Numbered from the stretch's first letter, positions 10,259 to 36,234 are shown. The stretch is DNA of 64,000 bases from a virus (IMGVR_UViG_3300025030_000095:1111-65110); one strand, 5' to 3'. Made by a program: numbers and translations. The notes: a model not told the origin generated them from the sequence alone.

Positions 10259-10282
10259 GTGCTATCCCTCTTCTCAGCCACC

Positions 10283-11319: not shown

Positions 11320-11501
11320 ATCATTATTCACTCCTTGCTTGCGCATAAATAAAACTGAACTGGTGATTTCGCGGGAGAAGTCGAGGCAGATGCTAGATTG
11401 GACGTCGTGTTCGTTACTCATGAAGTAGTACCACCGAGAAGTTCAGTATTCTCCCACGCATTCCCAATAACACGTGATACCTTAACCCAATAACCAAAGC
11501 G

Positions 11502-17393: not shown

Positions 17394-17630
17394 CTAGCTA
17401 ATCAGATACTTCGAGCAAACCATCTTCCCGGTAACGTGCTGGCTAACTCCCTCTATGCCTCCGCATAACACGCACCCTGGTTGGTATTTACGGAGTATGA
17501 TTTCCTCGCCGTTAGTAAATATTTCAAGCCCGTCTCCTTCATTTAGGGATAATGTTCGACGTAATTCGACTGGTAATACTACGCGTCCGAGCTCATCGAG
17601 TTTACGTACTACTCCTGTGGATTTTCTCAA
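17394..17630 (-). CDS. abrB: AbrB-family transition-state regulator
   Basis: KSTGVVRKLDELGRVVLPVELRRTL...IILRKYQPGCVLCG. Confidence 0.92.
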   Translation of the reverse strand: MRKSTGVVRKLDELGRVVLPVELRRTLSLNEGDGLEIFTNGEEIILRKYQPGCVLCGGIEGVSQHVTGKMVCSKYLIS

Positions 17631-18731: not shown

Positions 18732-19643
18732 CTAAAATCCTGGCCCATCATCCATTAGGGGAGCAGGGATCGCGGGAGGTTGTTTGGTAAACGTCGCCTG
18801 ATGATCAACGACAATATCTGAATTAATCTCTCCTGTTAAAAATTCGGGAGCAATATCAATCACATCACCGTTTGCATTCTCCGAAATTTCTAGTTCGACA
18901 CTTGCCTCAGTTACGCTGTCGCTAGTTTCATTGGCAAACTTTGAGACAATGCTGCGGTCATCAGACCCATTAATAACCATCTTGCACGCCTTATTTATGA
19001 CAGTCTTTAGGCACATATCGGCTGTAAACTTGTCGTGCGTACTTCCGGGTTTTACCTGACCGCTATCATTAACGGGATTCATTTTGCTTTGCTTCCATGC
19101 TTGCTTTATCTGTTCAAATGTCATTATGGTTGACTCTTCTTTTCCTGAGAAATACAGCAAAGTTGCATAAGCGGCAATTATTTTACTCTTGTTCACATTC
19201 TCAATCTTCTGAGTATGCCTAGTTACAACATTTTTTCCTCGAACTTTGCTATATTCGAAATCGTCACCATCGTACACAACATCACCGAATATATCTTCAA
19301 TATCCTCGTTGACCGATTTAGCGACAACCATGCTCCCGAAATAAGAACGCTGCATGAGTAACTTTTGACCATACGCAATGAAGTAGCATTGCTTTTTGTC
19401 GGGATTAAGTCCCTGTACAACCATACTTAGAAGGGAATTTGCGATACTATCCTTAGTGCAACTTTCAAGCACAGGTTTACCATCTCGATTGGTTGTTTCC
19501 TGCATTATCAACCACGCAGACTTCAGCGCGTTTTCGGGGATATAATTTGTAGGAAAAACCAATTCTCCGCTACCCTGAAAAAACTTAACCCGCTCAGCTA
19601 CAAAATCTACGGTTTCCTTTTTGATTGTTAGTGCGTTTGACAT
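18732..19643 (-). CDS. recT: RecT-family single-strand annealing recombinase
   Basis: GLNPDKKQCYFIAYG, QRSYFG, MCLKTVI. Confidence 0.9.
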   Translation of the reverse strand: MSNALTIKKETVDFVAERVKFFQGSGELVFPTNYIPENALKSAWLIMQETTNRDGKPVLESCTKDSIANSLLSMVVQGLNPDKKQCYFIAYGQKLLMQRSYFGSMVVAKSVNEDIEDIFGDVVYDGDDFEYSKVRGKNVVTRHTQKIENVNKSKIIAAYATLLYFSGKEESTIMTFEQIKQAWKQSKMNPVNDSGQVKPGSTHDKFTADMCLKTVINKACKMVINGSDDRSIVSKFANETSDSVTEASVELEISENANGDVIDIAPEFLTGEINSDIVVDHQATFTKQPPAIPAPLMDDGPGF

Positions 19644-21740
19644 TTACACTAATACCTCCACTCTCAATTTACTATTCCTCTCATCCCAATCCTTCTTAGC
19701 CGGATACATACCTCCGTATTTGTCGGTAAGTGATTCTATTACAACCTCATCCAATTGATCGAATGAAGGAGGTACGATAAGCTTAATGAGTTGAGCTTTC
19801 GTTTCAACGAAACTTGTCACGGACTCCGCATTATCCACAAACAATGGCAACGAAGCCCCATAGTATTCAGACAGGAAATTAATTATATCCAGCCCAGCGT
19901 TAATTTTTCCCCCATTATTCGCCCCATCAAACTCAACCCACGCACCGTTGGTATTAACTAGCGTCCGGCATATTTCTTTCTCGGTTCCATCATTCAGAGT
20001 GTCGAACATCTTAAATCTAACCGTTTTAAACCTTTTGTTAATGGAATCCTCAAGCATCTTCGCCTTGGCGCTTGTGAATTGCTTAATTAAGTAGTCATGG
20101 AACTCGTGAGAGCTAATTTCCCTAGCTAGATCACTTTCCTCGATCCTTAGTTCATCTACTCTTGCCTTTGCCTTCTTGACAATATCCTGATTATTCAAGG
20201 TTCTATTTAGAGAGTTGATCTGATCCATAACAATATTCTTTTGGTTAATAAGCTCGGTTGTCGTGTCAGCGATAGGTTTGCTTAGCTCCGACATCAGTGT
20301 TTGGTATTCCACGTTGAGTAAGGAGTACTTGGTATCCGCATCATAATTCACAACAGTAGATGTGCCGCGAATAGCTTCGATCTCATTTTCAAGCTCAGCC
20401 AATCTGATCTCCACCTGTTTTAATTCGGAATCATGAGTATTGAGAGAAGCACCTGACTCGTTCTGCTCGTAAACTAACCTTGACAATTCCTCTGATAACT
20501 CCTTGCCCTGCGCGCTTATCGCTACAAGAATTTGCCTCTTTGCCTTCTCGAAATTGTCTCTCATCCGAACAAGTTTGTGTTCCCTTTTATCCTCCGGTAA
20601 TGATTGCTCGCATGTTGGGCATGTAAAGCTATCCAGTCTTGGCTCAATGAATTGCTTGGCATCTTCTTCTTTCCATGATGCCCGAAGTTCAGCTAGTTTG
20701 GCATCAATTCTGTTGTATTCAATAACTCTCGACTCGGATTGACTATTAATCCTCGAAATATACGCACCTATGCGATATTTTTCGCTTTCCAAAAACGACT
20801 TCTCGTCAATTAACTTCTTGAATACAGCACCAGACTCGGCCTCTAATTTACCCTTGCGAACGTCAATTTCAGACCGTAATCCAAACGCTTTCTGCTGCTT
20901 CTGGCGATACAAATTAGCAACATTGGCACTCGTGGACAGTCTTATCTCTATGTCCAGTAATGCACTTTTTTGAACAGCTACGGACTCTTCTACGGCTACA
21001 TAATCCACTCCATCATCAACTATCGACCTCAGCTGCTCGTTAATTCGTGCAGGGATTGATTCGATCTTAGATTTGCATTGCTTAATCGCCTCAGCGATAA
21101 CCCTCTTGTGATTCTCAATCGTTCTCCCTGAGTTAATAACCATCTGAAGATCCAGCATGCTTTTATCCGTTACAGTCACACATGAATCAATAACATCCGA
21201 ATCGGATACGTCACCACATATCCCAAACAGTATCTTGCGCCGATCTTGCCATCCGAATCCCTTGTCGTTGGTATTAAAAAATAACGGATTAGTAAGTAAC
21301 TTAAAGATGTTTTCATTAATAATCGTATTGATTTCGATGATATATTCCTTAGCTTTAACCGGAACATCATTCACCCAATAGGATGTTTCATTGCCAGCGA
21401 ATTCCTTTGTTTGTAATCCTCGCTTACTTACCCATTTTTCAGACAGCATTCGCTTGAGCTTCAGGGTTTTACTATCAACAGACAAGATACCCTCAACAAT
21501 CGACTCAAGATTATGACGCTCGTTACCACTTTCATCCTGAGGCTTAATCTGGTAATCCGTCCTATTTAGCGAGTCCCGACCGAATAATAGCCATAAAAAC
21601 GAGTCATACAAGGTTGTTTTAGATGTGGCATTGCGTCCGAATATGTCAGCGTTTTTACCGTCAAGTATGAGCGTAAAATCCGTCACGCCTTTAAAGTTAG
21701 AAATACGAAGTGAGTGCAGAAGTATTTTAACTTTATCCAC
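19644..21740 (-). CDS. SMC/Rad50-like coiled-coil ATPase
   Basis: NFKG, GRNATSKTT Walker A, CPTC hook, LFVDNAES Walker B. Confidence 0.88.
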   Translation of the reverse strand: MDKVKILLHSLRISNFKGVTDFTLILDGKNADIFGRNATSKTTLYDSFLWLLFGRDSLNRTDYQIKPQDESGNERHNLESIVEGILSVDSKTLKLKRMLSEKWVSKRGLQTKEFAGNETSYWVNDVPVKAKEYIIEINTIINENIFKLLTNPLFFNTNDKGFGWQDRRKILFGICGDVSDSDVIDSCVTVTDKSMLDLQMVINSGRTIENHKRVIAEAIKQCKSKIESIPARINEQLRSIVDDGVDYVAVEESVAVQKSALLDIEIRLSTSANVANLYRQKQQKAFGLRSEIDVRKGKLEAESGAVFKKLIDEKSFLESEKYRIGAYISRINSQSESRVIEYNRIDAKLAELRASWKEEDAKQFIEPRLDSFTCPTCEQSLPEDKREHKLVRMRDNFEKAKRQILVAISAQGKELSEELSRLVYEQNESGASLNTHDSELKQVEIRLAELENEIEAIRGTSTVVNYDADTKYSLLNVEYQTLMSELSKPIADTTTELINQKNIVMDQINSLNRTLNNQDIVKKAKARVDELRIEESDLAREISSHEFHDYLIKQFTSAKAKMLEDSINKRFKTVRFKMFDTLNDGTEKEICRTLVNTNGAWVEFDGANNGGKINAGLDIINFLSEYYGASLPLFVDNAESVTSFVETKAQLIKLIVPPSFDQLDEVVIESLTDKYGGMYPAKKDWDERNSKLRVEVLV

Positions 21741-22492: not shown

Positions 22493-22828
22493 CTACTCAA
22501 CCATCCTAATCCTTACAGCCTCGTCCAACGCCGCCAGAAACTCCCCGTTCGGCATGGGCCCTGTCCTTCCTAGCTCTTTGACCCATATCGCTTCATCTAC
22601 CGTCGCTTGGCTTACTGCGTGGCGAATACCTCTCTCAACGCGGCTGGCTATTTTCTCGTCGCACGATTTTCCAGCCTCTGGATAGAGCTCCTTGGTTATG
22701 CGATAGATGGAGTTTGGATTTTCGCGAAGGTATTTAGTAGCCGAAATTATGAACCGATAACCTTTGATATGCGCTGGTATTCCGAGTTCGCGCAGGATAC
22801 TAATTGTTTCGAGTTCGAATTTATCCAA
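22493..22828 (-). CDS. Spo0A C-terminal DNA-binding domain protein (copy 2, no receiver)
   Basis: ELGIPAHIKGYRFI, ITKELYP, ASRVERGIRHAV, PNGEFLA; TTG start inferred from alignment with copy 1. Confidence 0.92.
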   Translation of the reverse strand: MDKFELETISILRELGIPAHIKGYRFIISATKYLRENPNSIYRITKELYPEAGKSCDEKIASRVERGIRHAVSQATVDEAIWVKELGRTGPMPNGEFLAALDEAVRIRMVE

Positions 22829-23219
22829 CCTGATCACCAACTCCTTTAATCCCTTTTTTGATCTCAAACAACTTGGCCCTAACCTCTATTTCCCTGATCA
22901 ATGCCGCTAAAAACTTTGTGTTTGTCAGATGCCCGGCTGTTCCAAGAATCCTATGCCACGTCACATCATCAGCCTTACTAGACCCTACTGCAGTCCTGAT
23001 TCCCTTTTCGATGCGACTCCCTCTGACATCCTCGCCGTGAATCTTGCTTACCCCTGGGTATAATTCTTTAGTCATGGCATTGATGGAGTCGGGGTTCTCC
23101 TTCAGGAATTTAACAGCAGTAATGATGTGTTGGTAGCCCTTAACATGTGTTGATATTCCAAGTTCGAGCAGGATGTCGATTAGTAGGGCGTTGATTATTT
23201 TTAGTTCGTATTTATCCAT
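22821..23219 (-). CDS. Spo0A C-terminal DNA-binding domain protein (copy 1, no receiver)
   Basis: ELGISTHVKGYQHI, MTKELYP, GSRIEKGIRTAV, TNTKFLA. Confidence 0.9.
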   Translation of the reverse strand: MDKYELKIINALLIDILLELGISTHVKGYQHIITAVKFLKENPDSINAMTKELYPGVSKIHGEDVRGSRIEKGIRTAVGSSKADDVTWHRILGTAGHLTNTKFLAALIREIEVRAKLFEIKKGIKGVGDQVG

Positions 23220-23769: not shown

Positions 23770-24966
23770 TTATGCCTCAACTAAAGGCCTATACTCATCC
23801 TTACTCTTTCCAAAAGTCCAAGCAACGGCTGACCAAACATCTTTTATGTCAGATGGGATACATAAGGCATATTCGCGCCCGGTTGAGTGACAGGTTACCC
23901 CCACAAATTGCAAATACTCATTTGCTATGGAGTCTATTTCCCTTGTCCTCCACAGAACCGCTTCCTTGCGACTATCTCCAATCCCCACAATCCCACGATC
24001 AACCTCAATAACGTCCAAAAGTTTTATAAAGTCCGAGTCAAGCTTTTCCATCATTGCACGTCGTACTTCTGCATTTTCTTCACGCACTAGGTCTTCGCGG
24101 GTAAGTTGTTCTGGTGTTTCTACAATCTTTTGTGTAACCGATACACCATGCCAGAAATACTGTGCATATCCGTCCATCCAAAGGATTGCCGGTCCGTCTT
24201 CGCAATGCAAACGGTTAGACTCATCGCGCTTGATGTATTCAGGCCGACCACAAAGGATAGCGGCTCCCTTCAAAAAGATGGTGTAAAATATTCCGTTTTT
24301 AATGTGGCTCATATATTTAGTAAATCCGTCATGCTTCACAATCCCGATTCCGGAAAAATAATCATAAAAAGCTACCCATCCGTTGTCGGTCAAAACATTT
24401 TCTTCTGCCGGATAAAAATATTCTAATTCCTGATCCCTGACCTGACCCCCGACCTGATCCCAGACCTGATCCCAGACCTGATCCCTGACCTGATCCCAGA
24501 CCTGACCCCAGACCTGACCCCCGACCTGATCCCTGACCTGATCCAAGACCTGATCCCCGACCTGATCCCAGACCTGATCCCTGACCTGACCCCTGACCTG
24601 ATCCCCGACCTGATCCCAGACCTGATCCCAGACCTGATCCCAGACCTGATCCCTGACCTGATCCCAGACCTGATCCCAGACCTGATCCCTGACCTGACCC
24701 CTGACCTGATCCCCGACCTGACCCCCGACCTGATCCCTGACCTGACCTTTTAAAAAATTAGCACCTATTTGACAACCTCTTGGGCTATCTAGGATTATAA
24801 TTAATGGTGCAGCCAATCCGGCAAGAGAATAGAGCCATTTCACATCTTCTATCGCTTTTTGTTTGTCGAGAGGCAGCTTGCTTTTAAAGACAAAATCAAG
24901 CCATTCTTCACGAACTTGGATCATTAACGCTTCCTGTTCTGGTAAAAGCTTTTCTAATTTAGCCAT
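23770..24966 (-). CDS. DUF6745-like protein with tetrapeptide repeat tract
   Basis: RLHCEDGPAILWMDGYAQYFWHGV, EENAEVRR, CHSTGREYAL, AVAWTFG; central [WRG][DG]QV repeats. Confidence 0.82.
   Translation of the reverse strand: MAKLEKLLPEQEALMIQVREEWLDFVFKSKLPLDKQKAIEDVKWLYSLAGLAAPLIIILDSPRGCQIGANFLKGQVRDQVGGQVGDQVRGQVRDQVWDQVWDQVRDQVWDQVWDQVWDQVGDQVRGQVRDQVWDQVGDQVLDQVRDQVGGQVWGQVWDQVRDQVWDQVWDQVGGQVRDQELEYFYPAEENVLTDNGWVAFYDYFSGIGIVKHDGFTKYMSHIKNGIFYTIFLKGAAILCGRPEYIKRDESNRLHCEDGPAILWMDGYAQYFWHGVSVTQKIVETPEQLTREDLVREENAEVRRAMMEKLDSDFIKLLDVIEVDRGIVGIGDSRKEAVLWRTREIDSIANEYLQFVGVTCHSTGREYALCIPSDIKDVWSAVAWTFGKSKDEYRPLVEA
24427..24750 (-). repeat. 12-bp tandem repeat, about 27 units
   Basis: Units (T/A/G)GG G(A/G)T CAG GTC on the coding strand, one TTG variant. 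Confidence 0.95.
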
Positions 24967-27395: not shown

Positions 27396-27562
27396 TTCGA
27401 ATATACCGAATTTATTGGGTAAAAAATATACCTGCGTTGCATTATTCTTGCGCAGGAATATTTGATTAACGTTAGTATATTCGAGAATACCGAATAAGTC
27501 AAGCGCATATAATGATATATTTCGATATTTTTAAAAAGGTATTCCATTCGCTAATATCGTAT
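27396..27562. promoter_or_regulatory. lysis/lysogeny switch: operators TTCG-N7-CG(A/T)A and lytic sigmaA promoter
   Basis: Operators at 27396-27410, 27479-27495, 27546-27562; minus-strand TTGACT(27497-27502)-17-TATACT(27474-27479) with one operator in the spacer. Confidence 0.78.
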
Positions 27563-27611
27563 ATATTTGGGTATACTATTAACTAATTCATATATAAAGG
27601 AATGGTGAATC

Positions 27612-28010
27612 ATGGATTATGGACAAAAAATAAGATATGTCAGGGAGAGAATAAGAGACATATCATTAACCGAGTTACATAACAGAACGGGCCTATCCCT
27701 TTCATACCTGTCCGATGCTGAAAACGGAAAATGCAATATGTCAATCAAGGCTTTGGAAAAGGTAGCTGATGCATTAAATGTAAGCTCATCTTACCTCTTA
27801 GATAAGCGCAGTATGACCTTAGAGCAGTTAGCGGATCTTAATAATGTCCAGTTGCCAGACAACGTGAAAGAATATGTAGCTAAGCAAAAGAGTCTACCTT
27901 ACATATCCTTAATTCAGGAGATTGACGAAAGGAATATTTTCTCGCTTGAATTTCTTAAGAATCTAATAGAGCTACATGAGAAAGAGGCTAAAAATACAAC
28001 TAAGACGTAG
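27612..28010 (+). CDS. CI-like immunity repressor (XRE HTH, no S24 peptidase domain)
   Basis: ISLTELHNRTGLSLSYLSDAENGK; divergent from cro, upstream of integrase. Confidence 0.9.
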   Translation: MDYGQKIRYVRERIRDISLTELHNRTGLSLSYLSDAENGKCNMSIKALEKVADALNVSSSYLLDKRSMTLEQLADLNNVQLPDNVKEYVAKQKSLPYISLIQEIDERNIFSLEFLKNLIELHEKEAKNTTKT

Positions 28011-28088
28011 GAATTTGTCGGAATTAAATGTCAAAATAAAAAAGGATATGCTTTCGTTGTTCGCGAACTATTATAGGCTAGTTATTGC

Positions 28089-28107
28089 AGAACTTATGTT
28101 CTATAAT
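28089..28107 (+). promoter_or_regulatory. LexA SOS box abutting a TATAAT -10 element
   Basis: AGAAC-TTAT-GTTCT matches Gram-positive GAAC-N4-GTTC. Confidence 0.75.
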
Positions 28108-28144
28108 AGCGTAATAGCTCCAATATTTGATAGGAGGACAGCGA

Positions 28145-28279
28145 ATGAAAGTTATCATCTGCGACCTAGTAGAGACTGGTGCACGTTGGTTATTCATCGG
28201 GGACAAAGTTCTTATTAGTCAAGGTTTTATTGATGATTTCGTAAAGGAACATCCAGAAATAAAAATGACGGCTAAATAG
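28145..28279 (+). CDS. 44-aa putatively SOS-inducible micro-protein (antirepressor or RDF candidate; not in ORF track)
   Basis: AGGAGG RBS; MKVIICDLVETGARWLFIGDKVLISQGFIDDFVKEHPEIKMTAK. Confidence 0.72.
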   Translation: MKVIICDLVETGARWLFIGDKVLISQGFIDDFVKEHPEIKMTAK

Positions 28280-28305
28280 CCGTTTTGACATCAAGGGGGT
28301 TACAG

Positions 28306-29844
28306 ATGGAATCTGTTGCAATTTATATACGAGTATCAACGAAAAGGCAAGTTGATAAATATTCCCCCCATGAACAGAAACGCGTATTAACAGAGTACGC
28401 AAACTCGCGGCAGTGGGGGATATTTGATTATTACTCTGACCTTGGGGAATCGGGAGCAGATTCAGATCGCGAAGAACTTGACAGGTTATTGGTTGACGCT
28501 GGTAAGAAACACTTCTCTAAGGTTTTATTATTTGAACAAGATAGATTATCTCGCCTTGAGCAATTAGACTGGGCATACCTAGCTAATTCGCTTGCTAAGA
28601 TGAACATAAAGCTTGTTACACCAACATCAGAGATTAACCTAGATAATGAAGAGGATCGGTTTCTTGCCGACCTCTTCAATCTTTTAGCAAATAGAGAAAT
28701 GAAGAAAATAAAGAAACGTACTTCTATGGGAAGAAAGGCAGCACACAAAGCTGGGACGTATTTTGCATCAGAGTCACCATTTGGTACGTTCTATGATCGT
28801 GAAACAAATACATGGAGCGTAATCCCCGAAGAAGCAAAGTTAGTAAAGATGATGTTTGAGTGGTATATAGGGGGCATGGGGTTTCCGTCTATCGGTAATA
28901 AGTTGAAATCACTTGGCTATAAAACAAGGAGGGGTAGTGGATTCGCCGGGAATGTTGTTTATAGAATTATGATGAACAAGGTGCACACAGGTTATTATGA
29001 ACAGACTATCGTTGGCGAAACCCTGTCACATAAAATCATTTGGAAGGAAGGGCATGGCCCATATATTACGGAAGAACAATTTAAGTGCATGAAGAGAATC
29101 GCAAATGAACGTTCTACTGGACAAGTAGAATATTTTCACGAATCGCGTTATCTCTTGTCTGGCTTGTTGGTCTGCGGGGAATGTAACAAGAAATTAAGAT
29201 TAGGAACAAAACGTTATATGGCTAAAGATGGAGAGCATGTTTATTTAACATACACCCATAAGCCGTATGACCCTGCTTGCAACGCTAGACATAAGGTGTC
29301 ATTAGTAGATAACAACGTAATAGGGGAGCTAATGAATATGGTTGGAAACGCCAACTATATCAAGGAACTCATGGAGAATAAGAATATACAAGAAACTGTT
29401 AAACCTTCTGAAGAAGACTTTTCAGAAATAAAGGTGCTGAGAGGAAAGCTGCTAAATAGAAAAAGCAAAATACTTGATCTTTATATGGATGAAGACTGGA
29501 CTAAGGAAGAATTATTGAAAAAGAAAAAAGAGATAGATACTGAGTTACAGGCGCTAGCTAATCGCGAAGAAGAATTTAACAATCGACTAAAATCCTCCGA
29601 AGAAAAGGATATTGACATTGATTATCTTGCAGACTCATTACAAATTATAAAAGTAATTGGAACGGGAGAAATCCCTCCGCGAGAAGAAAATAGTATTTTA
29701 AAGGATATCATTTCTGAAATAATCATTAGCAAGGATGGCATTGTTAAAATTAAATTAATGCCAAATAATGCAAACTTTTCTGACTCAAAGTATCACGCTC
29801 ATCAAGATGTATGGGTCACTTTGCCTCAAATTGCCGCAAGATAG
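28306..29844 (+). CDS. large serine recombinase (integrase)
   Basis: YIRVST catalytic Ser, DRLSR, recombinase domain, LSGLLVCGEC Zn ribbon and coiled coil. Confidence 0.97.
   Translation: MESVAIYIRVSTKRQVDKYSPHEQKRVLTEYANSRQWGIFDYYSDLGESGADSDREELDRLLVDAGKKHFSKVLLFEQDRLSRLEQLDWAYLANSLAKMNIKLVTPTSEINLDNEEDRFLADLFNLLANREMKKIKKRTSMGRKAAHKAGTYFASESPFGTFYDRETNTWSVIPEEAKLVKMMFEWYIGGMGFPSIGNKLKSLGYKTRRGSGFAGNVVYRIMMNKVHTGYYEQTIVGETLSHKIIWKEGHGPYITEEQFKCMKRIANERSTGQVEYFHESRYLLSGLLVCGECNKKLRLGTKRYMAKDGEHVYLTYTHKPYDPACNARHKVSLVDNNVIGELMNMVGNANYIKELMENKNIQETVKPSEEDFSEIKVLRGKLLNRKSKILDLYMDEDWTKEELLKKKKEIDTELQALANREEEFNNRLKSSEEKDIDIDYLADSLQIIKVIGTGEIPPREENSILKDIISEIIISKDGIVKIKLMPNNANFSDSKYHAHQDVWVTLPQIAAR
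29781..29828. other. putative attP inside integrase 3' end
   Basis: TGACTCAAAGT-N8-CATC-[AA]-GATG-N8-ACTTTGCCTCA: 48-bp imperfect palindrome with 23-bp arms and central dinucleotide. Confidence 0.7.
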
Positions 29845-29876
29845 TTTCACTAATTTTCCATTTGTTAGTTATTTAT

Positions 29877-29908
29877 GAACTTCTTTTTGATTAGAGAAGT
29901 TCTTTTTT
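29877..29908 (+). terminator. intrinsic terminator after integrase
   Basis: GAACTTCT/AGAAGTTC stem plus T6. Confidence 0.75.
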
Positions 29909-30013
29909 ATTATACCGAATAATATTATCTATCACACCCCGTAACACACTCACCCACGCCACAACACGCCCTGCCACCGTATCCCACAGCCTAACACAAA
30001 GAGAGGTGATCCC

Positions 30014-30217
30014 ATGGCATACAGATCCTTTCGAGACGATGAACAGATCGCCAAGAAACTTGACGCGATCCCCAAGAGCGAGAAGTCCACCATAATCCGC
30101 ATGGCACTACGCCAATACTTCGGCATCAGCGCAAGTAAGCCACCAGACCCCATCACTCCAGAAGTGGCACGCATGATGGCTAGAGAATTAATGAGCAACG
30201 TTACAAAAGGGGGTTAA
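30014..30217 (+). CDS. RHH DNA-binding protein
   Basis: SFRDDEQIAKKLDAIPKSEKSTIIRMALRQYF; GAGGTG RBS. Confidence 0.72.
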   Translation: MAYRSFRDDEQIAKKLDAIPKSEKSTIIRMALRQYFGISASKPPDPITPEVARMMARELMSNVTKGG

Positions 30218-30221
30218 TTAC

Positions 30222-31526
30222 ATGGCATCGGTTAAGGTTGATATCATCGGTTTATTTTCAGACGCTATCGTGCAGATCGGACGATTCGCTCTACGTAACA
30301 TCCCAAGGCACAGGGATTCTCACCCGGGACGTATCATGCTCAGCTGGAAGCGTAATGACGTATGTACCGAAACCAAAGAGCGCGGCAAGGATTATGTAAC
30401 GAAGGAATACCCGCGCCTCATCGAAAAGACTTGGAAGGGCCACAACCGAGTTTTCAAGTACAGGATTCCAACAGGCCTAAATCCGCAGAAAGTAATTAAA
30501 TCCCTCTACGACATCGAGTTCGATCTAAAGTCTGAAGTCCTTTTCAAGAGGCTTGAGAACGATCCGAAGGCGCACTTCTCCCTAACTATCCTCTCTGGTA
30601 AATTACTGGACCTCATCACTTACACTAACGAGGCTGAAACCATGCCAGACAAGAAAGGTCTATGGATACCCCTTGGATGGTCCAGGCGTGGACTGGAGCA
30701 ACTTAACCTAGCCTCCAGCAACAGTCCCCATCTAATGATCGGAGGGGCGACAGGAGGCGGTAAATCCATCCTTGGTAGGCTTATCCTAGCCACCCTACAC
30801 ATCAGATACACGCGCAATGAGTGCCGCCTATGGCTGTGTGATCTAAAACATGGCAATGGGACAGCAAGGCTAGGCAAAGATCCTCTCCTTGTAGACAGGA
30901 CTATTTCAGATCCCTCGGAGGTAGAACGGATGATGGATGACTTATCTGTAATAATTGGCGAGCGATATGATTTATTTAAGGCGTATGAATGCGATGATCT
31001 TGCGGCGTTTAATGAGGAGTATCCTGAAAAGCGATTACCGAGAATCGTGGTTTACTTCGACGAATATACGAAGATGGAAGGTAAAGAATTTTCGAAAGCT
31101 CGCGAGAAGGTTACTAAGGTTACAGGCGAATCCAGGGGGGCTGGCGTTCATTTTATAGTTTCTTGCCATCGCCCGACCGCTAATCTTATTTCCGGCACAA
31201 TGAAGAATAACATATCTGCGGTAGTAGCCTTCAATTGTAACGCTGTTTCTGCCCGGGTATTGCTCGGGGAAGATCCAGAGGACTACAAAGCAGCCGCCAT
31301 GATCGATCCTGATGTCGAGGGTCGAGCGTTATTCAAGTTCAAGGACGAGGTATTGCTGCAAGTACCTTTCATCGACAACAAGGTGATAAAGGAGATTATG
31401 GCTAATTATCAGAAAGCTGTAATTAAAGGTGTTGTTGAACCAGTCATACAGGCTGTAATTTCGACTAGGGTGGTCGAACACTCAACCAACCATTCACTCA
31501 ACCATGCTACCGACCACCCCCAGTGA
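30222..31526 (+). CDS. FtsK/SpoIIIE-family ATPase
   Basis: SPHLMIGGATGGGKS, DLKHG, VYFDEY, SRGAGVH, HRP, GRALF. Confidence 0.93.
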   Translation: MASVKVDIIGLFSDAIVQIGRFALRNIPRHRDSHPGRIMLSWKRNDVCTETKERGKDYVTKEYPRLIEKTWKGHNRVFKYRIPTGLNPQKVIKSLYDIEFDLKSEVLFKRLENDPKAHFSLTILSGKLLDLITYTNEAETMPDKKGLWIPLGWSRRGLEQLNLASSNSPHLMIGGATGGGKSILGRLILATLHIRYTRNECRLWLCDLKHGNGTARLGKDPLLVDRTISDPSEVERMMDDLSVIIGERYDLFKAYECDDLAAFNEEYPEKRLPRIVVYFDEYTKMEGKEFSKAREKVTKVTGESRGAGVHFIVSCHRPTANLISGTMKNNISAVVAFNCNAVSARVLLGEDPEDYKAAAMIDPDVEGRALFKFKDEVLLQVPFIDNKVIKEIMANYQKAVIKGVVEPVIQAVISTRVVEHSTNHSLNHATDHPQ

Positions 31527-31555
31527 TTGTACACAACGATTAAATGCGCATTGCA

Positions 31556-31592
31556 GGCTACGTATACGGGCCTTTCGGTCCGTATACGTGCC
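31556..31592. other. 13-bp hairpin between FtsK and relaxase (oriT candidate)
   Basis: ACGTATACGGGCC-TTTC-GGTCCGTATACGT; no adjacent U tract. Confidence 0.5.
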
Positions 31593-31648
31593 ATCCTATC
31601 ATTACTTTTTTATTTTTACATTATTTTATATTGTTTGGAGGCGATGTT

Positions 31649-32284
31649 GTGAACTTTGTGACATACGGGCAACAGCGCGATGAGCGTATATTGGAGCTAG
31701 TAGGCCAAGGAACGGCGTTTACGCGGAGTCAAATAGAACGGGTTATGTTTAGGCAGAAAGATGGTAAGCGTAAGGCTCAATTAAGGCTACAAGCGTTATC
31801 CGACTCCGGCAGACTAAGGAGAATCATACGCACCCCTCACGAACCAGCTATTTACTGCCTAAAAAAACCACGTAATATAGATCACTTCTTAATTATCAAC
31901 GAGGTGTATTGCGCTATCATGTCGCAGAAAAAGTCCCACTACATCGTTAAGTGGAAGTGGTCCTATCCCCTGTTTGACGGTAAACTATGGGCCGATGCCA
32001 TGATCGATATTTATGACCAACTAAATAAGCGAAGGCATGTGATATTTGTAGAGGTTGAACGATACGCGGATCGCAAGTTCGAGAAGGATAGGAAGTATTC
32101 TGAGATCGCTAAATTGAATTGGACCAAGGAGGAATGGGCCATTAAGGAACCGACAAGGATATTATTTCCTGCAATTCTAGTCGTTACTGAATGCAAGTTG
32201 GAGGTCAGGAGTGAGCTAGATTTCTTTGTCGCTTCGTTGGATCAAGTCAAGAAGGATATTTATTCTATTATTTTGAGGAGGTAG
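31649..32284 (+). CDS. replication-relaxation (Replic_Relax) family protein
   Basis: RDERIL wHTH, HFLIINEVY, ADAMI, FVEVER, KYSE, FPAILVVT; start reset to GTG after GGAGG. Confidence 0.8.
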   Translation: MNFVTYGQQRDERILELVGQGTAFTRSQIERVMFRQKDGKRKAQLRLQALSDSGRLRRIIRTPHEPAIYCLKKPRNIDHFLIINEVYCAIMSQKKSHYIVKWKWSYPLFDGKLWADAMIDIYDQLNKRRHVIFVEVERYADRKFEKDRKYSEIAKLNWTKEEWAIKEPTRILFPAILVVTECKLEVRSELDFFVASLDQVKKDIYSIILRR

Positions 32285-32286
32285 CT

Positions 32287-32505
32287 ATGAGCAAGCTAGG
32301 TAAAACAACCACAAAGGCAACATACGGGCTACTAAACCTAGTCATGAAACCAGTCTACGAGCAAATGAAAAAAGAGCGCAAGGAAGAAGTAAGGCGCTGG
32401 AACAAGTCTCTAAATGTAGCGTCTCAAGACGCAATGGCAGAGGCTAGGAGATTCGAGGTACATCAACCGTTTGATGCGATTATCCACCAACACAGACTAT
32501 GGTAA
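32287..32505 (+). CDS. hypothetical protein
   Basis: GAGGAGG RBS. Confidence 0.65.
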   Translation: MSKLGKTTTKATYGLLNLVMKPVYEQMKKERKEEVRRWNKSLNVASQDAMAEARRFEVHQPFDAIIHQHRLW

Positions 32506-32605
32506 TGTCGCAAAACCATTAATCCTGTCGAGTTGCAGGAAAATGGAATAGCGCGCGGAAATCCTAAATAGTTTTGATAAATTAAATTTAAGAGGAGAGA
32601 TTCGA

Positions 32606-33277
32606 ATGAGTAAGATCCCAGGGTTCAGATCCGGAAAGAGGTGGAAAAAGGTAATCGCAACACTCGCATATCTATTCATAGCGCTTGTTGTGTACGCGGC
32701 TGCAACTGGAGATCCGAAACCTAAAACAGTGACGACAGTACCAAGTTCGGCAGTCATTGCTCCGGTTGTTGAGAAGACTCCTGAACAAATTGCCCAAGAG
32801 AAAGCAGATGCTGAATTAAGAGCTAAGCAATTTGAGGAAGCTAGAGTGGTTACTGAAGCCAAGGTCAAGGCTGATGCCGAAGCAAAAGCAAAGCAAGACG
32901 CAGCAGACAAGGCGGTCGCTGATGTCAAAGCTGCGGCTGATGCAGAGGCTAGGAAGCCAAAGCATGTAGATTATAAAGACCTAGCCCGTAATCCTGATAA
33001 TTATATGGGCACTAATGTAATATTTACAGGTAAGGTCATTCAGGTTCAAGAGAGTGGTAAGTTAGTTAACCTTAGAGTCAACGTTACCAAAAATACCTAC
33101 GGGTATGAGAATACTGTCATGATTCAATATGACAAGGGTATCGTTAGTAGCCGGGTTCTAGAAGATGATATTATAACCTTTTCAGGGATGTCCATGGGAC
33201 TATTGACATATAAGACGGTTATGGGTGCAGAGATGACAATTCCTCAAGTATTAGCCACCAACGTAACGTTTCAATAA
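32606..33277 (+). CDS. membrane-anchored coiled-coil/OB-fold protein (TcdC-like architecture)
   Basis: TM helix, Ala/Lys coiled coil, YKDLARNPDNYMG...TGKVIQV...RVLEDDII. Confidence 0.72.
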   Translation: MSKIPGFRSGKRWKKVIATLAYLFIALVVYAAATGDPKPKTVTTVPSSAVIAPVVEKTPEQIAQEKADAELRAKQFEEARVVTEAKVKADAEAKAKQDAADKAVADVKAAADAEARKPKHVDYKDLARNPDNYMGTNVIFTGKVIQVQESGKLVNLRVNVTKNTYGYENTVMIQYDKGIVSSRVLEDDIITFSGMSMGLLTYKTVMGAEMTIPQVLATNVTFQ

Positions 33278-33297
33278 AAAGCGAAGTAATTACCATT

Positions 33298-33326
33298 GGT
33301 CCCTGGCGTAAGTCGGGGGCTGTTTT
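33298..33326 (+). terminator. intrinsic terminator
   Basis: GGTCCCTGGC-GTAA-GTCGGGGGCT then GTTTT. Confidence 0.7.
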
Positions 33327-33333
33327 ATGTAAG

Positions 33334-33387
33334 CTTGAAAATAAGTGTTGACTTTCATCTTGAAAAGCAGTATAATTATATCAAGAT
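33334..33387 (+). promoter_or_regulatory. near-consensus sigmaA promoter with operator repeats
   Basis: TTGACT(33348)-17-TATAAT(33371); ATCTTGA/TCAAGAT inverted repeat flanks the -10; CTTGAAAA twice. Confidence 0.85.
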
Positions 33388-33407
33388 AAAGAAAGGGGTT
33401 GCACGCA

Positions 33408-33905
33408 ATGACGAAGATTAAAATGAGCAAACGCGAAATGATGGTTGAAGCCCACAAGATGGCGCGTAGAATGGTTGGGGATTATGTGGCTAGACTAGCA
33501 TTGGCTCTTCGAACATTGTGGGCATCCGCTAAGAAAGGAGTAAAATCAGTGGAAAAACTCATTACCAATGAATTGGGCGATATTGAAGTCCTCTCTGTCG
33601 AAAGAGAGGAGCAAGTAGAAAAGACTGGAAGCTCAAAGGGTTGGATTGTATCAGTGAAGAAATTAGTCAGAATCGGAAAAAGTATCATCCTAGATACAGA
33701 GTACGACATTAAAATTGTTAGAGAAACCGAAAAGGCTATTCTCCTCAGTGTTACCGAAGTTGAAGATGATTACACAGTTGAAACTTGGGTACCAAAAAGT
33801 GTTTTTAACCAAACCGAACTAGGGATGGAGGTTGAGCCTTGGTTCGCGAAGAAAAATCGTATGGGTTGCGCGGTGAATATTACTCGGTACGCAAAGGAAG
33901 CGTAG
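33408..33905 (+). CDS. hypothetical protein, first gene of accessory operon
   Basis: AAAGGGG RBS; internal AGGAG RBS with in-frame GTG at 33549. Confidence 0.75.
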   Translation: MTKIKMSKREMMVEAHKMARRMVGDYVARLALALRTLWASAKKGVKSVEKLITNELGDIEVLSVEREEQVEKTGSSKGWIVSVKKLVRIGKSIILDTEYDIKIVRETEKAILLSVTEVEDDYTVETWVPKSVFNQTELGMEVEPWFAKKNRMGCAVNITRYAKEA

Positions 33906-33947
33906 TTAGGCCAGTCGGGGCCATACCGGCGTGAAGGAGGAAATGAC

Positions 33948-34265
33948 ATGAGCCACACTATCGAATTCAAGGTTATTACCGACATCCTTTCCGAGGAACT
34001 TTTCCAGACCCGTTACATCATCGGAAAAGTTGATACAAAACACTTCGTTTATGTCTGGTCTCAGAAAATGTCCGATGATGAAGTAGAAATTACTTCCGAA
34101 ATGCTGAACTATCCCAAAGGTGAACACGGAGCCATGATTGGAACAGCAAATGAAATATCTGACCACATCAAGATTTGTGTAGGACTGCACAGGGATGACT
34201 CCGATCCTATCACGGCTGAAGCTGCCACTGAGGTTGTGAATGAATTGATCGAAGGACTACAATAA
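33948..34265 (+). CDS. small acidic hypothetical protein
   Basis: AAGGAGG RBS. Confidence 0.75.
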   Translation: MSHTIEFKVITDILSEELFQTRYIIGKVDTKHFVYVWSQKMSDDEVEITSEMLNYPKGEHGAMIGTANEISDHIKICVGLHRDDSDPITAEAATEVVNELIEGLQ

Positions 34266-34269
34266 TCTT

Positions 34270-34815
34270 ATGGAAATTACTTTAGAAAACAAAAAGGAGA
34301 TACTAGTCTTTTTAAACAAGGGCCTTTGCCCCATATGCGGAAAAGGCCCTTACAAAAACCCTCTACTGCACATCTGGAAGCAACATGATATATCATCGCG
34401 TGAAATACGAGATATCCTACTAATTACAACTAGAGATACTTTTTGTTCTCCTGGGTTAAGAGAAATCATGAGTAATAAAGCGAAAGAATCAGATTCCCAC
34501 TTAATTGCAAATTCCGCCACAAGAGGAAAGAATTTTAAAAAGGAGCATAACCTAGTTCAAGAATCACGCATTAAGAATGATACTGAATACAAAGGTAAAT
34601 ACATGGTTTACTTACGTGAAGGTGCTAAAAAAGCAGCGGAAAGTAATAAAAAGCCAGTTTACAAGATTTTACCTGATGGAGAAAAAATTAGGTACAGCAG
34701 CATTACTGAAGCTGCTCAAGCCAATAGCGTAGATAAAGATTCTATCATCAACTGCCTAAAAGGAAGAACAAGGACATGCATTGGGTGTAAATGGATTTAT
34801 GAGTCCGTGCAATAA
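34270..34815 (+). CDS. Zn-finger/NUMOD1-like DNA-binding protein
   Basis: CPICG...H; KKPVY...YSSITEAA...IINCLKGRTRTCIGCKWIY. Confidence 0.7.
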   Translation: MEITLENKKEILVFLNKGLCPICGKGPYKNPLLHIWKQHDISSREIRDILLITTRDTFCSPGLREIMSNKAKESDSHLIANSATRGKNFKKEHNLVQESRIKNDTEYKGKYMVYLREGAKKAAESNKKPVYKILPDGEKIRYSSITEAAQANSVDKDSIINCLKGRTRTCIGCKWIYESVQ

Positions 34816-34877
34816 TTGCACATACTGAAAATTATACCCGACAGCTCGTAAGGAGCGGGGCGAGAGGAGTTTTTTGG

Positions 34878-35213
34878 ATGAAAAAATATATTTCTGCGTT
34901 TGCTCAATATAAAGTATGGGACTTCGGAAATAGAATTGCACCTTCGGTTATCGAAACCGAAAACGGAAGAACACAAGTTGTTCATAATATTGCACAGCCT
35001 CTGCCAACATTTTGGCACAAGGGAGGATGTGACGTGTTCATTGAATGCTACATTAATCCTCCTGAAGGAATTAATTCCTTCAGGAAAGGATTCACTCAGG
35101 ATAACGACTTGGTTTCTGGGGAAATACCCGTCGAAATGATATTCGACGGAAAGGGAATATATACGGATGAAGTTATTACTTGGGATGAATTTATGAAGAT
35201 AGAGGAGGAATAA
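34878..35213 (+). CDS. small acidic hypothetical protein
   Basis: GAGGAG RBS. Confidence 0.72.
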   Translation: MKKYISAFAQYKVWDFGNRIAPSVIETENGRTQVVHNIAQPLPTFWHKGGCDVFIECYINPPEGINSFRKGFTQDNDLVSGEIPVEMIFDGKGIYTDEVITWDEFMKIEEE

Positions 35214-35215
35214 TC

Positions 35216-35551
35216 ATGATATTTGAAAATTGGATGACCTGCGAAAAGTTAGTTGATGACGGCGACTACACAATCGGTTACGTTGACGGAAAGCCTGCTC
35301 AATGGGACGGTAAAAACGAATTACTTGAAGGTGAAGATTTCCGTCCAGCCAAAGAAGGAAATACATTCGGGGTTAATTTCCAAAATGATTACGTCGTCGA
35401 AAATGGCGTTTGGGTAGGGAATTCAGGGCACGGCGGAAAACGAGAAGGTTCTGGGCGCAAGCCTACTGGCCGAAAGCAAAGATCTATATGGCTCAATGAG
35501 GATGAACTTGACAAGGTAAGGGACTTTGTCAAAAGTCTGAGGGATGAATGA
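35216..35551 (+). CDS. acidic domain fused to C-terminal AT-hook/RHH-like DNA-binding tail
   Basis: HGGKREGSGRKPTGRKQRSIWLNEDELDKVRDFV. Confidence 0.7.
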   Translation: MIFENWMTCEKLVDDGDYTIGYVDGKPAQWDGKNELLEGEDFRPAKEGNTFGVNFQNDYVVENGVWVGNSGHGGKREGSGRKPTGRKQRSIWLNEDELDKVRDFVKSLRDE

Positions 35552-35580
35552 GGAAATTAAGTAATCTCCATGCCAAACGC

Positions 35581-35614
35581 AAAAAAGCCCCGAACCATTA
35601 CGGCCCGGGGCTTT
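35581..35614. terminator. bidirectional terminator at strand convergence
   Basis: AAAGCCCCG...CGGGGCTTT with A6 flank. Confidence 0.8.
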
Positions 35615-35849: not shown

Positions 35850-36059
35850 TTATTCGCTCCTGGCTATTCCTGCATTAGTCCACATAACCGCTTCCTCAAT
35901 CTTGGTTATGGCTAGCGATTTTTCTCTTGAATCAGGACATAGGATATCAATTATTTCAACGAAGGCTTTACCCATGTCCCTGATTTCCTCGAACTTTTGT
36001 ACTTGACCACCCTTTGGGGCGTGATGGGTAAAACGTTTAGCCAGTTCTTTTTCATCCAC
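35850..36059 (-). CDS. Acb2/Tad1-like helical hairpin protein (putative immune-signal sponge)
   Basis: FTHHAPK...CPDSREKSLAITKIEEAVMWTNAGIAR; GTG start after AAAGGA. Confidence 0.65.
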   Translation of the reverse strand: MDEKELAKRFTHHAPKGGQVQKFEEIRDMGKAFVEIIDILCPDSREKSLAITKIEEAVMWTNAGIARSE

Positions 36060-36234
36060 ATTGATCATTCCTTTCGTTTTGGCAAGCGATTGCGAATTTA
36101 CCATTTGTACAGAAAATATTCCAAAAAATATTCCCTTTTTTCGGTTAAAAATATTCCATAATGCATTTACTTGATTTAATATGCCGAATCAACCACTTCG
36201 CTTGAATAGATAGACTCTTAAATTTTTGACTGTT

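Follow-up and report, generated by a model that had tools for sequence, protein, structure and literature searches.

A conserved DNA element between the FtsK-type ATPase and MOBC-family genes of a Desulfosporosinus-type phage, and a candidate relaxosome-like role for its cassette

A cassette that joins a relaxase-like gene to the gene of a DNA-translocating ATPase has been known in Bacillus phages since 2012. Pathria et al. (2012, PMC3357382) described it in phage 0305phi8-36 as a 'DNA translocation operon' made up of a MobC-like relaxase and a translocase without transmembrane (TM) segments, listed SPO1, GBSV1, BV1 and the Gamma and Wbeta phages as carrying homologues, pointed to integration genes nearby, and proposed propagation by translocation. 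Later genome papers, in the passages that concern the pair, annotate or speculate only (PMC9658697, PMC11526630), and the literature found on the function of the phage pair consists of annotation-level statements, the 2012 deletion and speculation. Here we analyse the Desulfosporosinus-phage version of this operon in a temperate siphovirus (IMGVR_UViG_3300025030_000095), using a stretch of 64,000 of the 65,110 bases of its record (hereafter the window; positions are counted from its first letter). The cassette comprises a gene for a small protein resembling ribbon-helix-helix (RHH) proteins, the ATPase gene ftsK, the relaxase-family gene rel and a gene for a 72-aa protein; the original prediction, made from the sequence alone, had read it as a mobilisation-like module with an origin of transfer (oriT) between ftsK and rel. 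New here are a delimited cis site, 12-nt repeats that co-vary with Rel, a natural inversion of the site, and a layout that matches the origin region of pAD1-type plasmids.

Steczkiewicz et al. (2012, PMC3424549) placed the family to which Rel belongs, PF13814 (Replic_Relax), in the PD-(D/E)XK superfamily, and CONJscan treats it as MOBC (Coluzzi et al. 2017, PMC5357655). Members of MOBC include TraX of pAD1 and MobC of CloDF13; in the account of a 2025 review (PMC12857230), TraX consists of a winged helix and a restriction-endonuclease-like domain, and it binds five direct repeats 70-120 bp from the nick site (nic), with no covalent intermediate detected. The family had initially been linked to the MOBL relaxases. 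MOBL, represented by RelLS20, is of the HUH type, and its signatures are described as absent from MOBC members (Ramachandran 2017, PMC5313138); the assignment is corrected here to MOBC on the basis of CONJscan and of the MOBC type that PLSDB gives to the pAD1-like pTEF1, which carries a 'replication-relaxation family protein'.

At the heart of the cassette (Table 1) lies a conserved DNA element of ~195 bp, which begins within the 3' end of ftsK and takes up most of the spacer ahead of rel. It was delimited by comparison with related loci. A protein search returned 33 Rel homologues, one of them from a Desulfosporosinus metagenome-assembled genome (MAG), and locus searches returned 38 loci from two genomes (a Desulfosporosinus MAG and the D. 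paludis chromosome), nine viral contigs and 27 metagenome contigs; many of these are duplicated between collections, and judged by the 263 nt ahead of rel they represent 22 distinct loci in addition to the window. Across the resulting 23 elements ~195 nt can be aligned once the window clade is reverse-complemented, the element of this clade (the window, L005, L008 and L021, all four in the same orientation) being inverted relative to 19 of the 23 non-redundant relatives. At the 3' end of the window ftsK, 64 nt correspond, on the opposite strand, to the spacer of L018 at 54 of 64 positions. An nhmmer profile of the element matched the window at 31449-31642 (E 3.6e-36) as its sole significant copy, and profiles of the repeats, the core and the full element detected no second significant copy in the window. 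Neither the second site originally proposed, at 29910-30013, nor the C-rich stretch at 29930-30013 ahead of the RHH-like gene matched the element profiles.

Read in element orientation, the element comprises an A-tract, a GGCAC-TTTACGG segment, a segment ending in the core, and a G-rich stretch with a 12-nt period. The core is nearly invariant, G(T/G)ACAA(T/C)C, and holds the invariant columns of the alignment. For the repeat stretch, mean autocorrelation at lag 12 over the 23 elements was 0.464 compared with 0.29 in shuffles; lag 12 was the best lag in 16 of the 23, the other seven, including the window (lag 4), being best at lag 4, 8 or 24, and there was no signal at lags 3, 6 and 9. The motif GKTGAGTG occurs five times in the window, which is not above chance (20 of 100 shuffles).

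The element is maintained in very different coding contexts. In the L006 group a ~60-residue C-terminal extension of FtsK is read through it in direct orientation (L006:7757-7960); in the group of L018 and L023-L030 ftsK stops ahead of it, and in these loci and L009 it is non-coding; and in the inverted clade (window, L005, L008, L021) the last ~19 ftsK codons are read from it, in the window at 31470-31526, with the protein ending in the tail VEHSTNHSLNHATDHPQ. Because it is kept in both orientations and in all of these coding states, we regard it as a candidate protein-binding site at the level of DNA. The 122-bp spacer between ftsK and rel that had been predicted to be oriT-like is present (31527-31648) and forms part of this element; the conserved part, however, also reaches into the 3' end of ftsK (31448-31526), which the predicted site left out, and the hairpin on which attention had centred is not among the conserved parts.

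Two other roles for the element were considered and dropped. A live invertible switch was put aside, orientation being the same in all four members of the clade, ftsK reading through the inverted part and no flanking inverted repeats being seen where the boundaries were read by eye. Of four DNA sequencing data sets, all belonging to a single study, two may be the source of the window DNA; the assembled contigs of runs X1 and X3 contained no joints and no inversion. The element was also rejected as attP, since the chromosomal locus L006 keeps ftsK, element and rel contiguous and the type of integrase varies among relatives.

Among the 19 loci with full-length genes, divergence of the repeats was correlated with divergence of Rel (Spearman 0.81) and less so with divergence of FtsK (0.42). 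Compared with the window, L014 has the same RHH type and an FtsK that is 93% identical, with Rel at 48% and the repeats at 41% identity; L018, in the opposite orientation, has Rel at 76% and the repeats at 83%; and L008, which carries the other RHH type, has Rel at 82% and the repeats at 80%. The repeats do not co-vary with RHH type. A role of the winged helix of Rel as the putative reader of the repeats would fit these sequence relationships.

The predicted hairpin itself was found as described: arms of 13 nt at 31560-31572 and 31577-31589, forming 12 Watson-Crick pairs and one G-T pair around a 4-nt loop, each arm containing one nested CGTATACG palindrome. The spacer folds at -39.2 kcal/mol (z -3.84), a value equalled by none of 200 shuffles. 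The two CGTATACG copies, 20 bp apart, are the only ones in the 64 kb, against a chance expectation of 0.45; at least two copies occurred in 7 of 100 shuffles. Conservation in homologous modules, proposed as a test, was not observed: RNAalifold gave no conserved pair over the 23 aligned elements, the CGTATACG hairpin is specific to this phage, and a family-wide hairpin was therefore dropped. Spacer lengths across related loci range from 16 to 183 nt, and a window-like spacer is restricted to the three closest relatives (L005, L008 and L021), each of which has a different, imperfect stem-loop there. Only the right arm aligns with the GGCAC-TTTACGG segment of the relatives; by sequence comparison, the hairpin is a lineage-specific elaboration of this conserved segment. 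A search of 29800-32700 against Rfam at E up to 1 gave no match. Run X3 samples a near-identical population, and two of its assembled contigs stop where core and hairpin meet, at 31538 and 31541; an assembly effect may account for this, and it proves nothing.

Rel matches PF13814, as predicted, at 29.8 bits against a gathering cut-off of 25.3 (E 7.7e-07, residues 69-157), and at 30.4 bits in a genome-level search that included the neighbouring stretches. The Pfam scan returned this family only, with no match to Rep_trans; a Rel profile found no PDB sequence at E up to 1, and no PADLOC model matched. The start of rel is GTG 31649, preceded by GGAGG 7 nt upstream, and not ATG 31544; all 31 aligned homologues are 204-222 aa long and start at the position of this GTG or at most 17 residues away. 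In the AlphaFold2 (AF2) model of Rel (pLDDT 92.3), structure comparison assigns residues 1-74 to a winged helix (Z 8-9), while the C-terminal domain is alpha/beta with a weak likeness to the PD-(D/E)XK class (Can1, 6sce, Z 7.4 over 139 residues); for this domain Foldseek returned Can2, Card1, McrC and FokI at E 0.03-0.3. Seven residues (D78, H79, D116, E135, E137, R138 and K146) are invariant in 31 homologues with 46-100% identity. The modelled architecture of Rel, a winged-helix N-domain followed by a PD-(D/E)XK-like C-domain, is that of TraX.

The identity of the partner as an FtsK-type ATPase was borne out by a PF01580 match at 48 bits against a cut-off of 24 (E 1.4e-12), with Walker A (G174-S182) and Walker B (D280/E281) invariant in 11 of 11 homologues; the closest solved relatives of its motor domain are EssC, FtsK and TcpA, the coupling protein of pCW3. 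PADLOC matched this domain to the defence proteins SspH and mad8, which are generic ATPase-domain matches. The predicted lack of a TM segment also holds as far as hydropathy tells: no convincing membrane segment was found, the N-terminal region reaching a maximum 19-residue Kyte-Doolittle mean of 1.40 in a test of hydropathy only. PF01580 was the sole domain matched and no C-terminal gamma domain was found; a comparable search did recover alpha, motor and gamma domains from the host FtsK encoded in L052. Downstream of the cassette, on the plus strand, lies the gene of a 223-aa protein (32606-33277) in which a single membrane helix at the N-terminus (hydropathy 2.24) is combined with a TolA-like charged stretch and a C-terminal domain of phrog_5319. 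No terminator is predicted between the cassette and this gene, the next terminator-like site being at 33297-33322. The related loci do not conserve this protein. As a membrane anchor belonging to the cassette it was rejected as inconsistent, a TM protein being found downstream only in the window and L041.

The two small genes carry less information. The RHH label of the 67-aa protein was not confirmed: no Pfam family matched even at E 10, NCBIfam ParR reached E 0.0098, far below the model's cut-off, and the AF2 monomer (pLDDT 67.5; helices at 6-17, 23-36 and 49-65, N-terminus unstructured) is compatible with an RHH fold but is not proof of one. Five homologues fall into two unrelated N-terminal types with a C-terminal tail in common; in L008:6324-6557, L018:6341-6574, L041:6024-6281 and the window gene at 30014-30217 this tail is a helix with the consensus PITPDxARLVARELM. 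By sequence, it looks as if a DNA-binding head had been exchanged while the tail, which would bind a partner, was conserved. The gene is variable and putatively accessory. The 72-aa protein, third of the core genes, matched no Pfam family.

In the 38 loci an ftsK homologue precedes rel in 34, the other four having less than 200 nt of upstream DNA, and the 72-aa gene follows in 36, the other two breaking off no more than ~530 nt past rel. Wherever a related Desulfosporosinus-type phage locus includes sufficient flanking sequence, these three genes are found together. In 19 of the 23 loci the repeats are immediately upstream of rel. In all eight annotated loci the cassette stands between lysogeny-control genes and phage lysis genes, and a serine or tyrosine integrase occurs at varying positions in the flanks of five of them. 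Close relatives are Desulfosporosinus genomes and phage contigs. Within the host family, 13 of 69 genomes contain a Rel homologue (three close, ten distant), and the two distant loci inspected pair Rel with an FtsK-type gene beside prophage genes. A second, distant FtsK-Rel pair with overlapping genes was seen in L052 (positions 8842-10620; D. paludis chromosome G001, 4643000-4662999), where it follows a tape-measure gene; host genes, among them the full-length host ftsK (L052:17363-19387), are only a few kb away.

Beyond these relatives, the window Rel gave no tblastn match in 50,697 phage records (E 1e-3) or in the plasmid collection (E 1e-2), and megablast of 27500-35600 found no match in the phage collection. 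The window ATPase matches 382 phage records, 254 of them from Bacillus. Similar gene pairs in Bacillus phages, mentioned in the original prediction, were recovered with a Bacillus-type Rel, which matches 26 phage records and lies beside the ATPase in every one; 23 are Bacillus, Geobacillus or Cytobacillus phages, and the matches in the remaining three, labelled Staphylococcus (two) and Stenotrophomonas (one), are identical to Bacillus cereus-group phages. In Listeria phage LIS04 the ATPase is present with no annotated Rel beside it. The Bacillus-type pair is also found on 347 plasmids of Bacillus, Priestia, Geobacillus, Paenibacillus and similar genera, of which 227 are typed as non-mobilizable, 68 as mobilizable and 52 as conjugative.

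Taking together the domain identities, the three-gene synteny, the orientation-independent element, the co-variation of repeats and Rel and the resemblance to pTEF1 computed here, we infer binding, cleavage, pump recruitment and a destination for the DNA along the following lines. The interpretation that we favour, at about an even chance, is a relaxosome-like module acting on the phage's own DNA. The winged helix of Rel would bind the 12-nt direct repeats of the ~195-bp element, and its PD-(D/E)XK domain would nick or cut nearby. If pAD1 TraX is a guide, cleavage would fall some tens of bp away from the repeats, within the core or hairpin part, and would probably leave no covalent adduct. Since the family is MOBC and TraX shows no adduct, the covalent-adduct assay once proposed for Rel may be negative even if Rel nicks. 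A soluble, membrane-less FtsK/TcpA-like hexamer would then be recruited to the element and pump the DNA; recruitment is proposed because the ATPase itself lacks a gamma domain with which to read DNA. Accessory factors would be the 72-aa protein and, via its conserved C-terminal helix, the RHH-like protein.

As to where the DNA would go within such a module, a route independent of type IV secretion systems (T4SS) is the leading candidate at somewhat less than an even chance, the options being passage through a septum (of division or sporulation), the partitioning of genomes that are not integrated, or delivery to a neighbouring cell in the manner of TraB or TdtA; hitch-hiking on a resident conjugation pore is a tentative second, and some other destination is unlikely. 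The T4SS-independent route is held to be at least as likely as hitch-hiking because the ATPase has no membrane anchor, the inspected loci contain no T4SS genes and G001 has none of four T4SS marker families. Conjugative hitch-hiking is consistent with the family memberships, and the spore-former host range together with the Spo0A_C and AbrB-fold cargo of the phage is consistent with a septal or forespore role. An unlikely extension would be a T4SS-free device common to the phages and plasmids of endospore formers, in which a MOBC-type nickase on 12-nt repeats loads a soluble FtsK pump for virion-free movement across the septum or into a neighbour, and in which the natural inversion of the site in the window clade would reverse the polarity of pumping with respect to the genome.

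Several observations weigh against a relaxosome-like module. The nuclease-fold match of the Rel model is weak (Foldseek E no better than 0.03), and hhalign of the Rel profile with the pTEF1 protein gave E 0.0053 at a probability of 6.9%, over the N-terminal half only. The co-variation of repeats and Rel could reflect linkage alone or shared ancestry, the loci not being phylogenetically independent. A membrane segment is lacking not only in the window ATPase but throughout the family, with maximum N-terminal hydropathy of 0.79-1.47 in 11 of 11 members. The predicted absence of mating-pore genes was upheld for the annotated window open reading frames (ORFs), none of which is a T4SS gene, and extends to the relatives, with no T4SS genes within 8 kb in eight close loci or within ~10 kb in the two distant loci annotated. 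Among three carrier genomes, AAA_10, TcpE and CagE_TrbE_VirB gave matches above cut-off in none and T4SS-DNA_transf in one (the MAG G002, which has a VirD4-type gene); the complete lysogen chromosome G001 has none of the four families above cut-off, and control genomes do give matches for these families. Virulent phages such as Leo2 carry the pair, for which conjugative transfer would be of no obvious use, and deletion of the operon in 0305phi8-36 caused, as far as the published account goes, no growth defect (PMC3357382).

The alternatives differ in what they make of these facts. The original prediction offered mobilisation of the excised phage as one hypothesis: nicked at the element, it would leave through a co-resident channel in the manner of an integrative and mobilizable element (IME), with the FtsK-like protein as coupling protein. 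This special case of the relaxosome-like module is rather unlikely taken by itself. A MOBC protein, an FtsK/TcpA-type ATPase, an RHH-like gene and an integrase do form the compact make-up of an IME, comparable to IME_Class_8 as described (PMC5357655), the layout of the element is like that of the pTEF1 region, a VirD4-type gene occurs in one of the three carrier genomes, and some of the plasmids with the Bacillus-type pair are conjugative (52 of 347) or mobilizable (68). Against it, docking to a pore is unexplained for 11 ATPases that all lack a membrane segment, the flanks of close and distant loci are free of T4SS genes, most of the plasmids (227) are non-mobilizable, the pair occurs in virulent phages, and the hypothesis is weakened because the complete lysogen chromosome G001 is without the four marker families. 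That the pump instead carries phage DNA that is not integrated through a septum closing at division or sporulation, or partitions it there, Rel and the repeats supplying the recognition that the ATPase lacks, is also unlikely and a little less probable. It requires no T4SS, agrees with the frequency of the pair on non-mobilizable plasmids and with the hosts met in these searches (endospore-forming Bacillota, with two oddly labelled exceptions), and has in its favour the two Spo0A_C-only proteins and the AbrB-fold protein of the phage; but the ATPase lacks any anchor to membrane or divisome, a prophage that is integrated can do without a device of this kind, partition would not call for a nuclease domain with invariant acidic residues, and the host range may mirror what tblastn detects, PF13814 itself reaching Enterococcus, Streptococcus and Actinobacteria.

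Replication, defence and regulatory explanations rank below these conjugative and T4SS-independent routes. Plasmid-type replication or maintenance, with Rel as an iteron-binding initiator next to an A+T-rich stretch and the ATPase aiding unwinding or segregation of an episome, is improbable. Repeats with an A-tract are also the layout of an iteron origin, many plasmids carry the pair, relatives go under the name 'replication initiation protein' in PHROGs and RefSeq, a plasmid replication protein is cited in the Pfam name and in the 2012 survey (PMC3424549), and Skorynina et al. (2022, PMC9658697) link the trio of genes to plasmid prophages. No experiment was found behind the 'replication initiation' names, however, and the window phage and BtCS33 (which has its own O-like and DnaC-like genes) possess complete replication modules and an integrase. 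Moreover, the combination in Rel of one winged helix with a nuclease-like domain is unlike the known architecture of iteron initiators, and the reported deletion in 0305phi8-36 left growth intact. An equally improbable view takes the hairpin alone as an RNA attenuator or processing site between ftsK and rel, with Rel merely an autoregulator binding its operator. A stem-loop followed by a T-rich tract occurs in the sense transcript of all four inverted-clade members, with different sequences, the repeats usually stand directly upstream of rel (19 of 23 loci), and the 2012 survey calls Replic_Relax a predicted transcriptional regulator (PMC3424549); the T-run nevertheless lies ~14 nt past the stem, the terminator scan did not list the hairpin, Rfam had no match and the residues of the Rel nuclease domain are invariant. 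A promoter or leader role does not fit either, because the element is kept in both orientations. Least probable is a prophage defence or exclusion pair in which incoming DNA would be attacked by a PD-(D/E)XK nuclease together with an FtsK/HerA-like ATPase: the cassette lies in an accessory arm by the lysogeny genes and on the repressor strand, its ATPase domain matches SspH and mad8, and deletion of the operon in 0305phi8-36 had no laboratory phenotype, but Rel matches no PADLOC model and belongs to a MOBC family, and a conserved cognate DNA site co-varying with Rel is unexpected for a defence nuclease.

Table 1. Features of the cassette and its surroundings in the window
Feature	Position	Strand	Basis or remark
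Late genes	63.9-36.4 kb	-	small and large terminase, portal, protease, major capsid, connectors, major tail protein, tape measure, tail proteins, holin, endolysin
Early genes	from 27.4 kb downwards	-	Cro-like gene, SbcC-like, RecT, SSB, helicase, 965-aa primase-helicase
Lysogeny/accessory block	27.6-35.5 kb	+	Xre-type repressor, large serine integrase, cassette, several small accessory genes
Large serine recombinase (phage integrase)	28285..29844	+	Resolvase, Recombinase, Zn_ribbon_recom domains; phrog_95 integrase, 3.6e-82
Terminator-like hairpin after int	29877..29902	+	terminator scan: 10 pairs then TTTTTT
RHH-like protein, 67 aa	30014..30217	+	no Pfam family; AF2 model
FtsK/SpoIIIE/TcpA-like ATPase, 434 aa	30222..31526	+	PF01580; phrog_1358, 6.7e-47
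Conserved ~195-bp cis element, candidate oriT-like or loading site	31448..31642	-	alignment of 23 elements; nhmmer profile
Direct-repeat array, 4-5 short repeats, 12-nt register	31469..31518	-	overlaps ftsK 3' end; repeat-profile match 31469-31517
Most conserved core GTACAATCAC	31523..31532	-	spans ftsK stop codon; sole exact copy in window
13-bp-arm hairpin with two CGTATACG palindromes	31560..31589	.	fold, pairing, copy count
T-rich tract (A-tract in element orientation)	31596..31632	.	nearly invariant A columns
Rel (Replic_Relax, MOBC family), 211 aa	31649..32284	+	PF13814
72-aa protein, third core gene	32287..32505	+	in 36/38 related loci

The surroundings of the cassette are those of a complete virion-forming phage, as had been stated: the siphovirus late region on the minus strand is complete, with packaging, capsid, tail and lysis genes all seen (Table 1). 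The primase-helicase of the early region carries DUF927 and Cch HTH domains, and the phage has its own replication machinery, since this enzyme, a helicase, SSB and RecT are encoded apart from the cassette. The latter is situated in the lysogeny and accessory arm, where the serine integrase is context and lies outside the conserved core. The terminator-like hairpin after int suggests that the cassette is transcribed separately; a search of 29903-30013 for a sigma-70-like promoter found none.

The Spo0A/AbrB cargo named in the original prediction is present. Two overlapping, adjacent minus-strand genes (22493-22867 and 22821-23219) encode proteins with the Spo0A C-terminal DNA-binding domain only (PF08769, E 9.5e-18 and 6.6e-16), that is, phage copies of the effector domain of the sporulation master regulator without its receiver domain, and a 78-aa protein of the AbrB/MazE/SpoVT fold is encoded at 17394-17630 on the minus strand (PF04014, E 6e-11). 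The Spo0A_C genes adjoin a gene for a 398-aa early protein with DUF6745 (23770-24966, minus strand, E 2.4e-25). Elsewhere, an 84-aa protein with an Acb2/Tad1 hairpin domain (35850-36104, minus strand; PF24729, E 3.8e-20) is a candidate sponge for cyclic-nucleotide defence signals, and three genes resemble homing endonucleases of the HNH or NUMOD type (34270-34815, plus strand; 48952-49677 and 10684-11421, minus strand), one of them placed between the tape-measure and tail-chaperone genes.

The cassette is widespread, as the 382 phage records matching its ATPase and the 347 Bacillus-group plasmids with the Bacillus-type pair attest. If it does move phage DNA without virions, it would provide a route of transfer or persistence that models of host range and transduction leave out. 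The candidate site offers a clean handle on this question, being only ~195 bp long, located between two genes and composed of separable repeats, core, hairpin and A-tract; natural variants are available in both orientations, and recombinants uncouple FtsK from Rel.

Among described systems, the T4SS-independent transfer by TraB with clt in Streptomyces and by TdtA in the 'transjugation' of Thermus (PMC5365140) resembles the module proposed here in that a single FtsK/HerA-type hexamer exports DNA without a T4SS, TraB recognising short repeats (clt) and tdtA adjoining nuclease genes. In the same account, by contrast, TraB reads clt with its own C-terminal domain and needs no nuclease, TdtA is membrane-localised, and both are without a MOBC partner; homology was shown for the ATPase domain only (NCBIfam plasmid_TraB model 53.7 bits, cut-off 800). 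Streptococcal IME_Class_8 (Coluzzi 2017, PMC5357655) likewise combines a serine integrase, a coupling protein and a PF13814/MOBC relaxase in a compact module. Its coupling protein, however, is of the VirD4 type and the element is a small island, whereas the window module lies inside a complete phage and the type of integrase varies among relatives.

Tn916 was the model first invoked for the order of coupling protein, oriT and relaxase genes; in both cases a gene of an FtsK-family protein adjoins a relaxase-family gene, with the site between the two. In Tn916 the order is orf21 (FtsK-like), oriT, orf20. The Tn916 relaxase is of the MOBT/Rep_trans type (PMC12857230), though, and Rel has no Rep_trans match; Tn916 also encodes its own mating pore, and pAD1/pTEF1 is the closer model.

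The likeness to the DNA translocation operons of 0305phi8-36 (orf200/201), SPO1 (gp27.3/27.4), GBSV1 (orf42/43) and the Gamma and Wbeta phages is that a MobC-like relaxase adjoins an ATPase without TM segment in a phage, near integration genes in the temperate members and apart from the replication module; the partner proteins of GBSV1, BtCS33, Leo2 and PK2 all match PF13814. In these four Bacillus and Geobacillus phages the two genes overlap, whereas the window has its site between the genes and inverted, in a Desulfosporosinus-type host lineage. Repeat arrays lie outside the pair in two of the four: BtCS33 has at least seven copies of the 12-nt unit TACCAnGGTAGn in 12-nt register in a 460-bp gap upstream of the cassette (L002:3278-3434), and in GBSV1 a 10-nt unit, with a spacing that is partly 11 nt, is present four times downstream of the cassette (L003:5941-6177). 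No array was found in the scanned regions of Leo2 and PK2.

The closest match in layout is the origin region of pAD1-type Enterococcus plasmids, in which TraW is the coupling protein and TraX the MOBC relaxase, as seen in pTEF1, where six direct repeats at exact 12-nt spacing (19658-19735) lie between a VirD4-type coupling-protein gene and a replication-relaxation gene, followed 19 bp beyond by nested perfect inverted repeats with arms of 18 and 25 nt (19498-19639), and after these by a small ORF and the relaxase-family gene. The two systems differ in that the coupling protein of pTEF1 is VirD4-like, with 737 aa and a TraM-recognition domain, and has a full T4SS beside it, whereas the window ATPase is FtsK-type, without TM segment or T4SS; in that the 25- and 18-nt arms of pTEF1 stand in an intergenic region of ~700 bp, compared with non-conserved 13-nt arms in a site of ~195 bp; and in that the two relaxase-family proteins align weakly. 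Like TraX of pAD1, which as reviewed (PMC12857230) has a winged helix and a restriction-endonuclease-like domain and binds repeats at a distance from nic, Rel is modelled with these two domains. Common to both layouts are a coupling-ATPase gene, repeats in 12-nt register, an inverted repeat and a PF13814/MOBC gene with a small ORF after it; in the window the order is ATPase gene, repeats, core, hairpin and rel.

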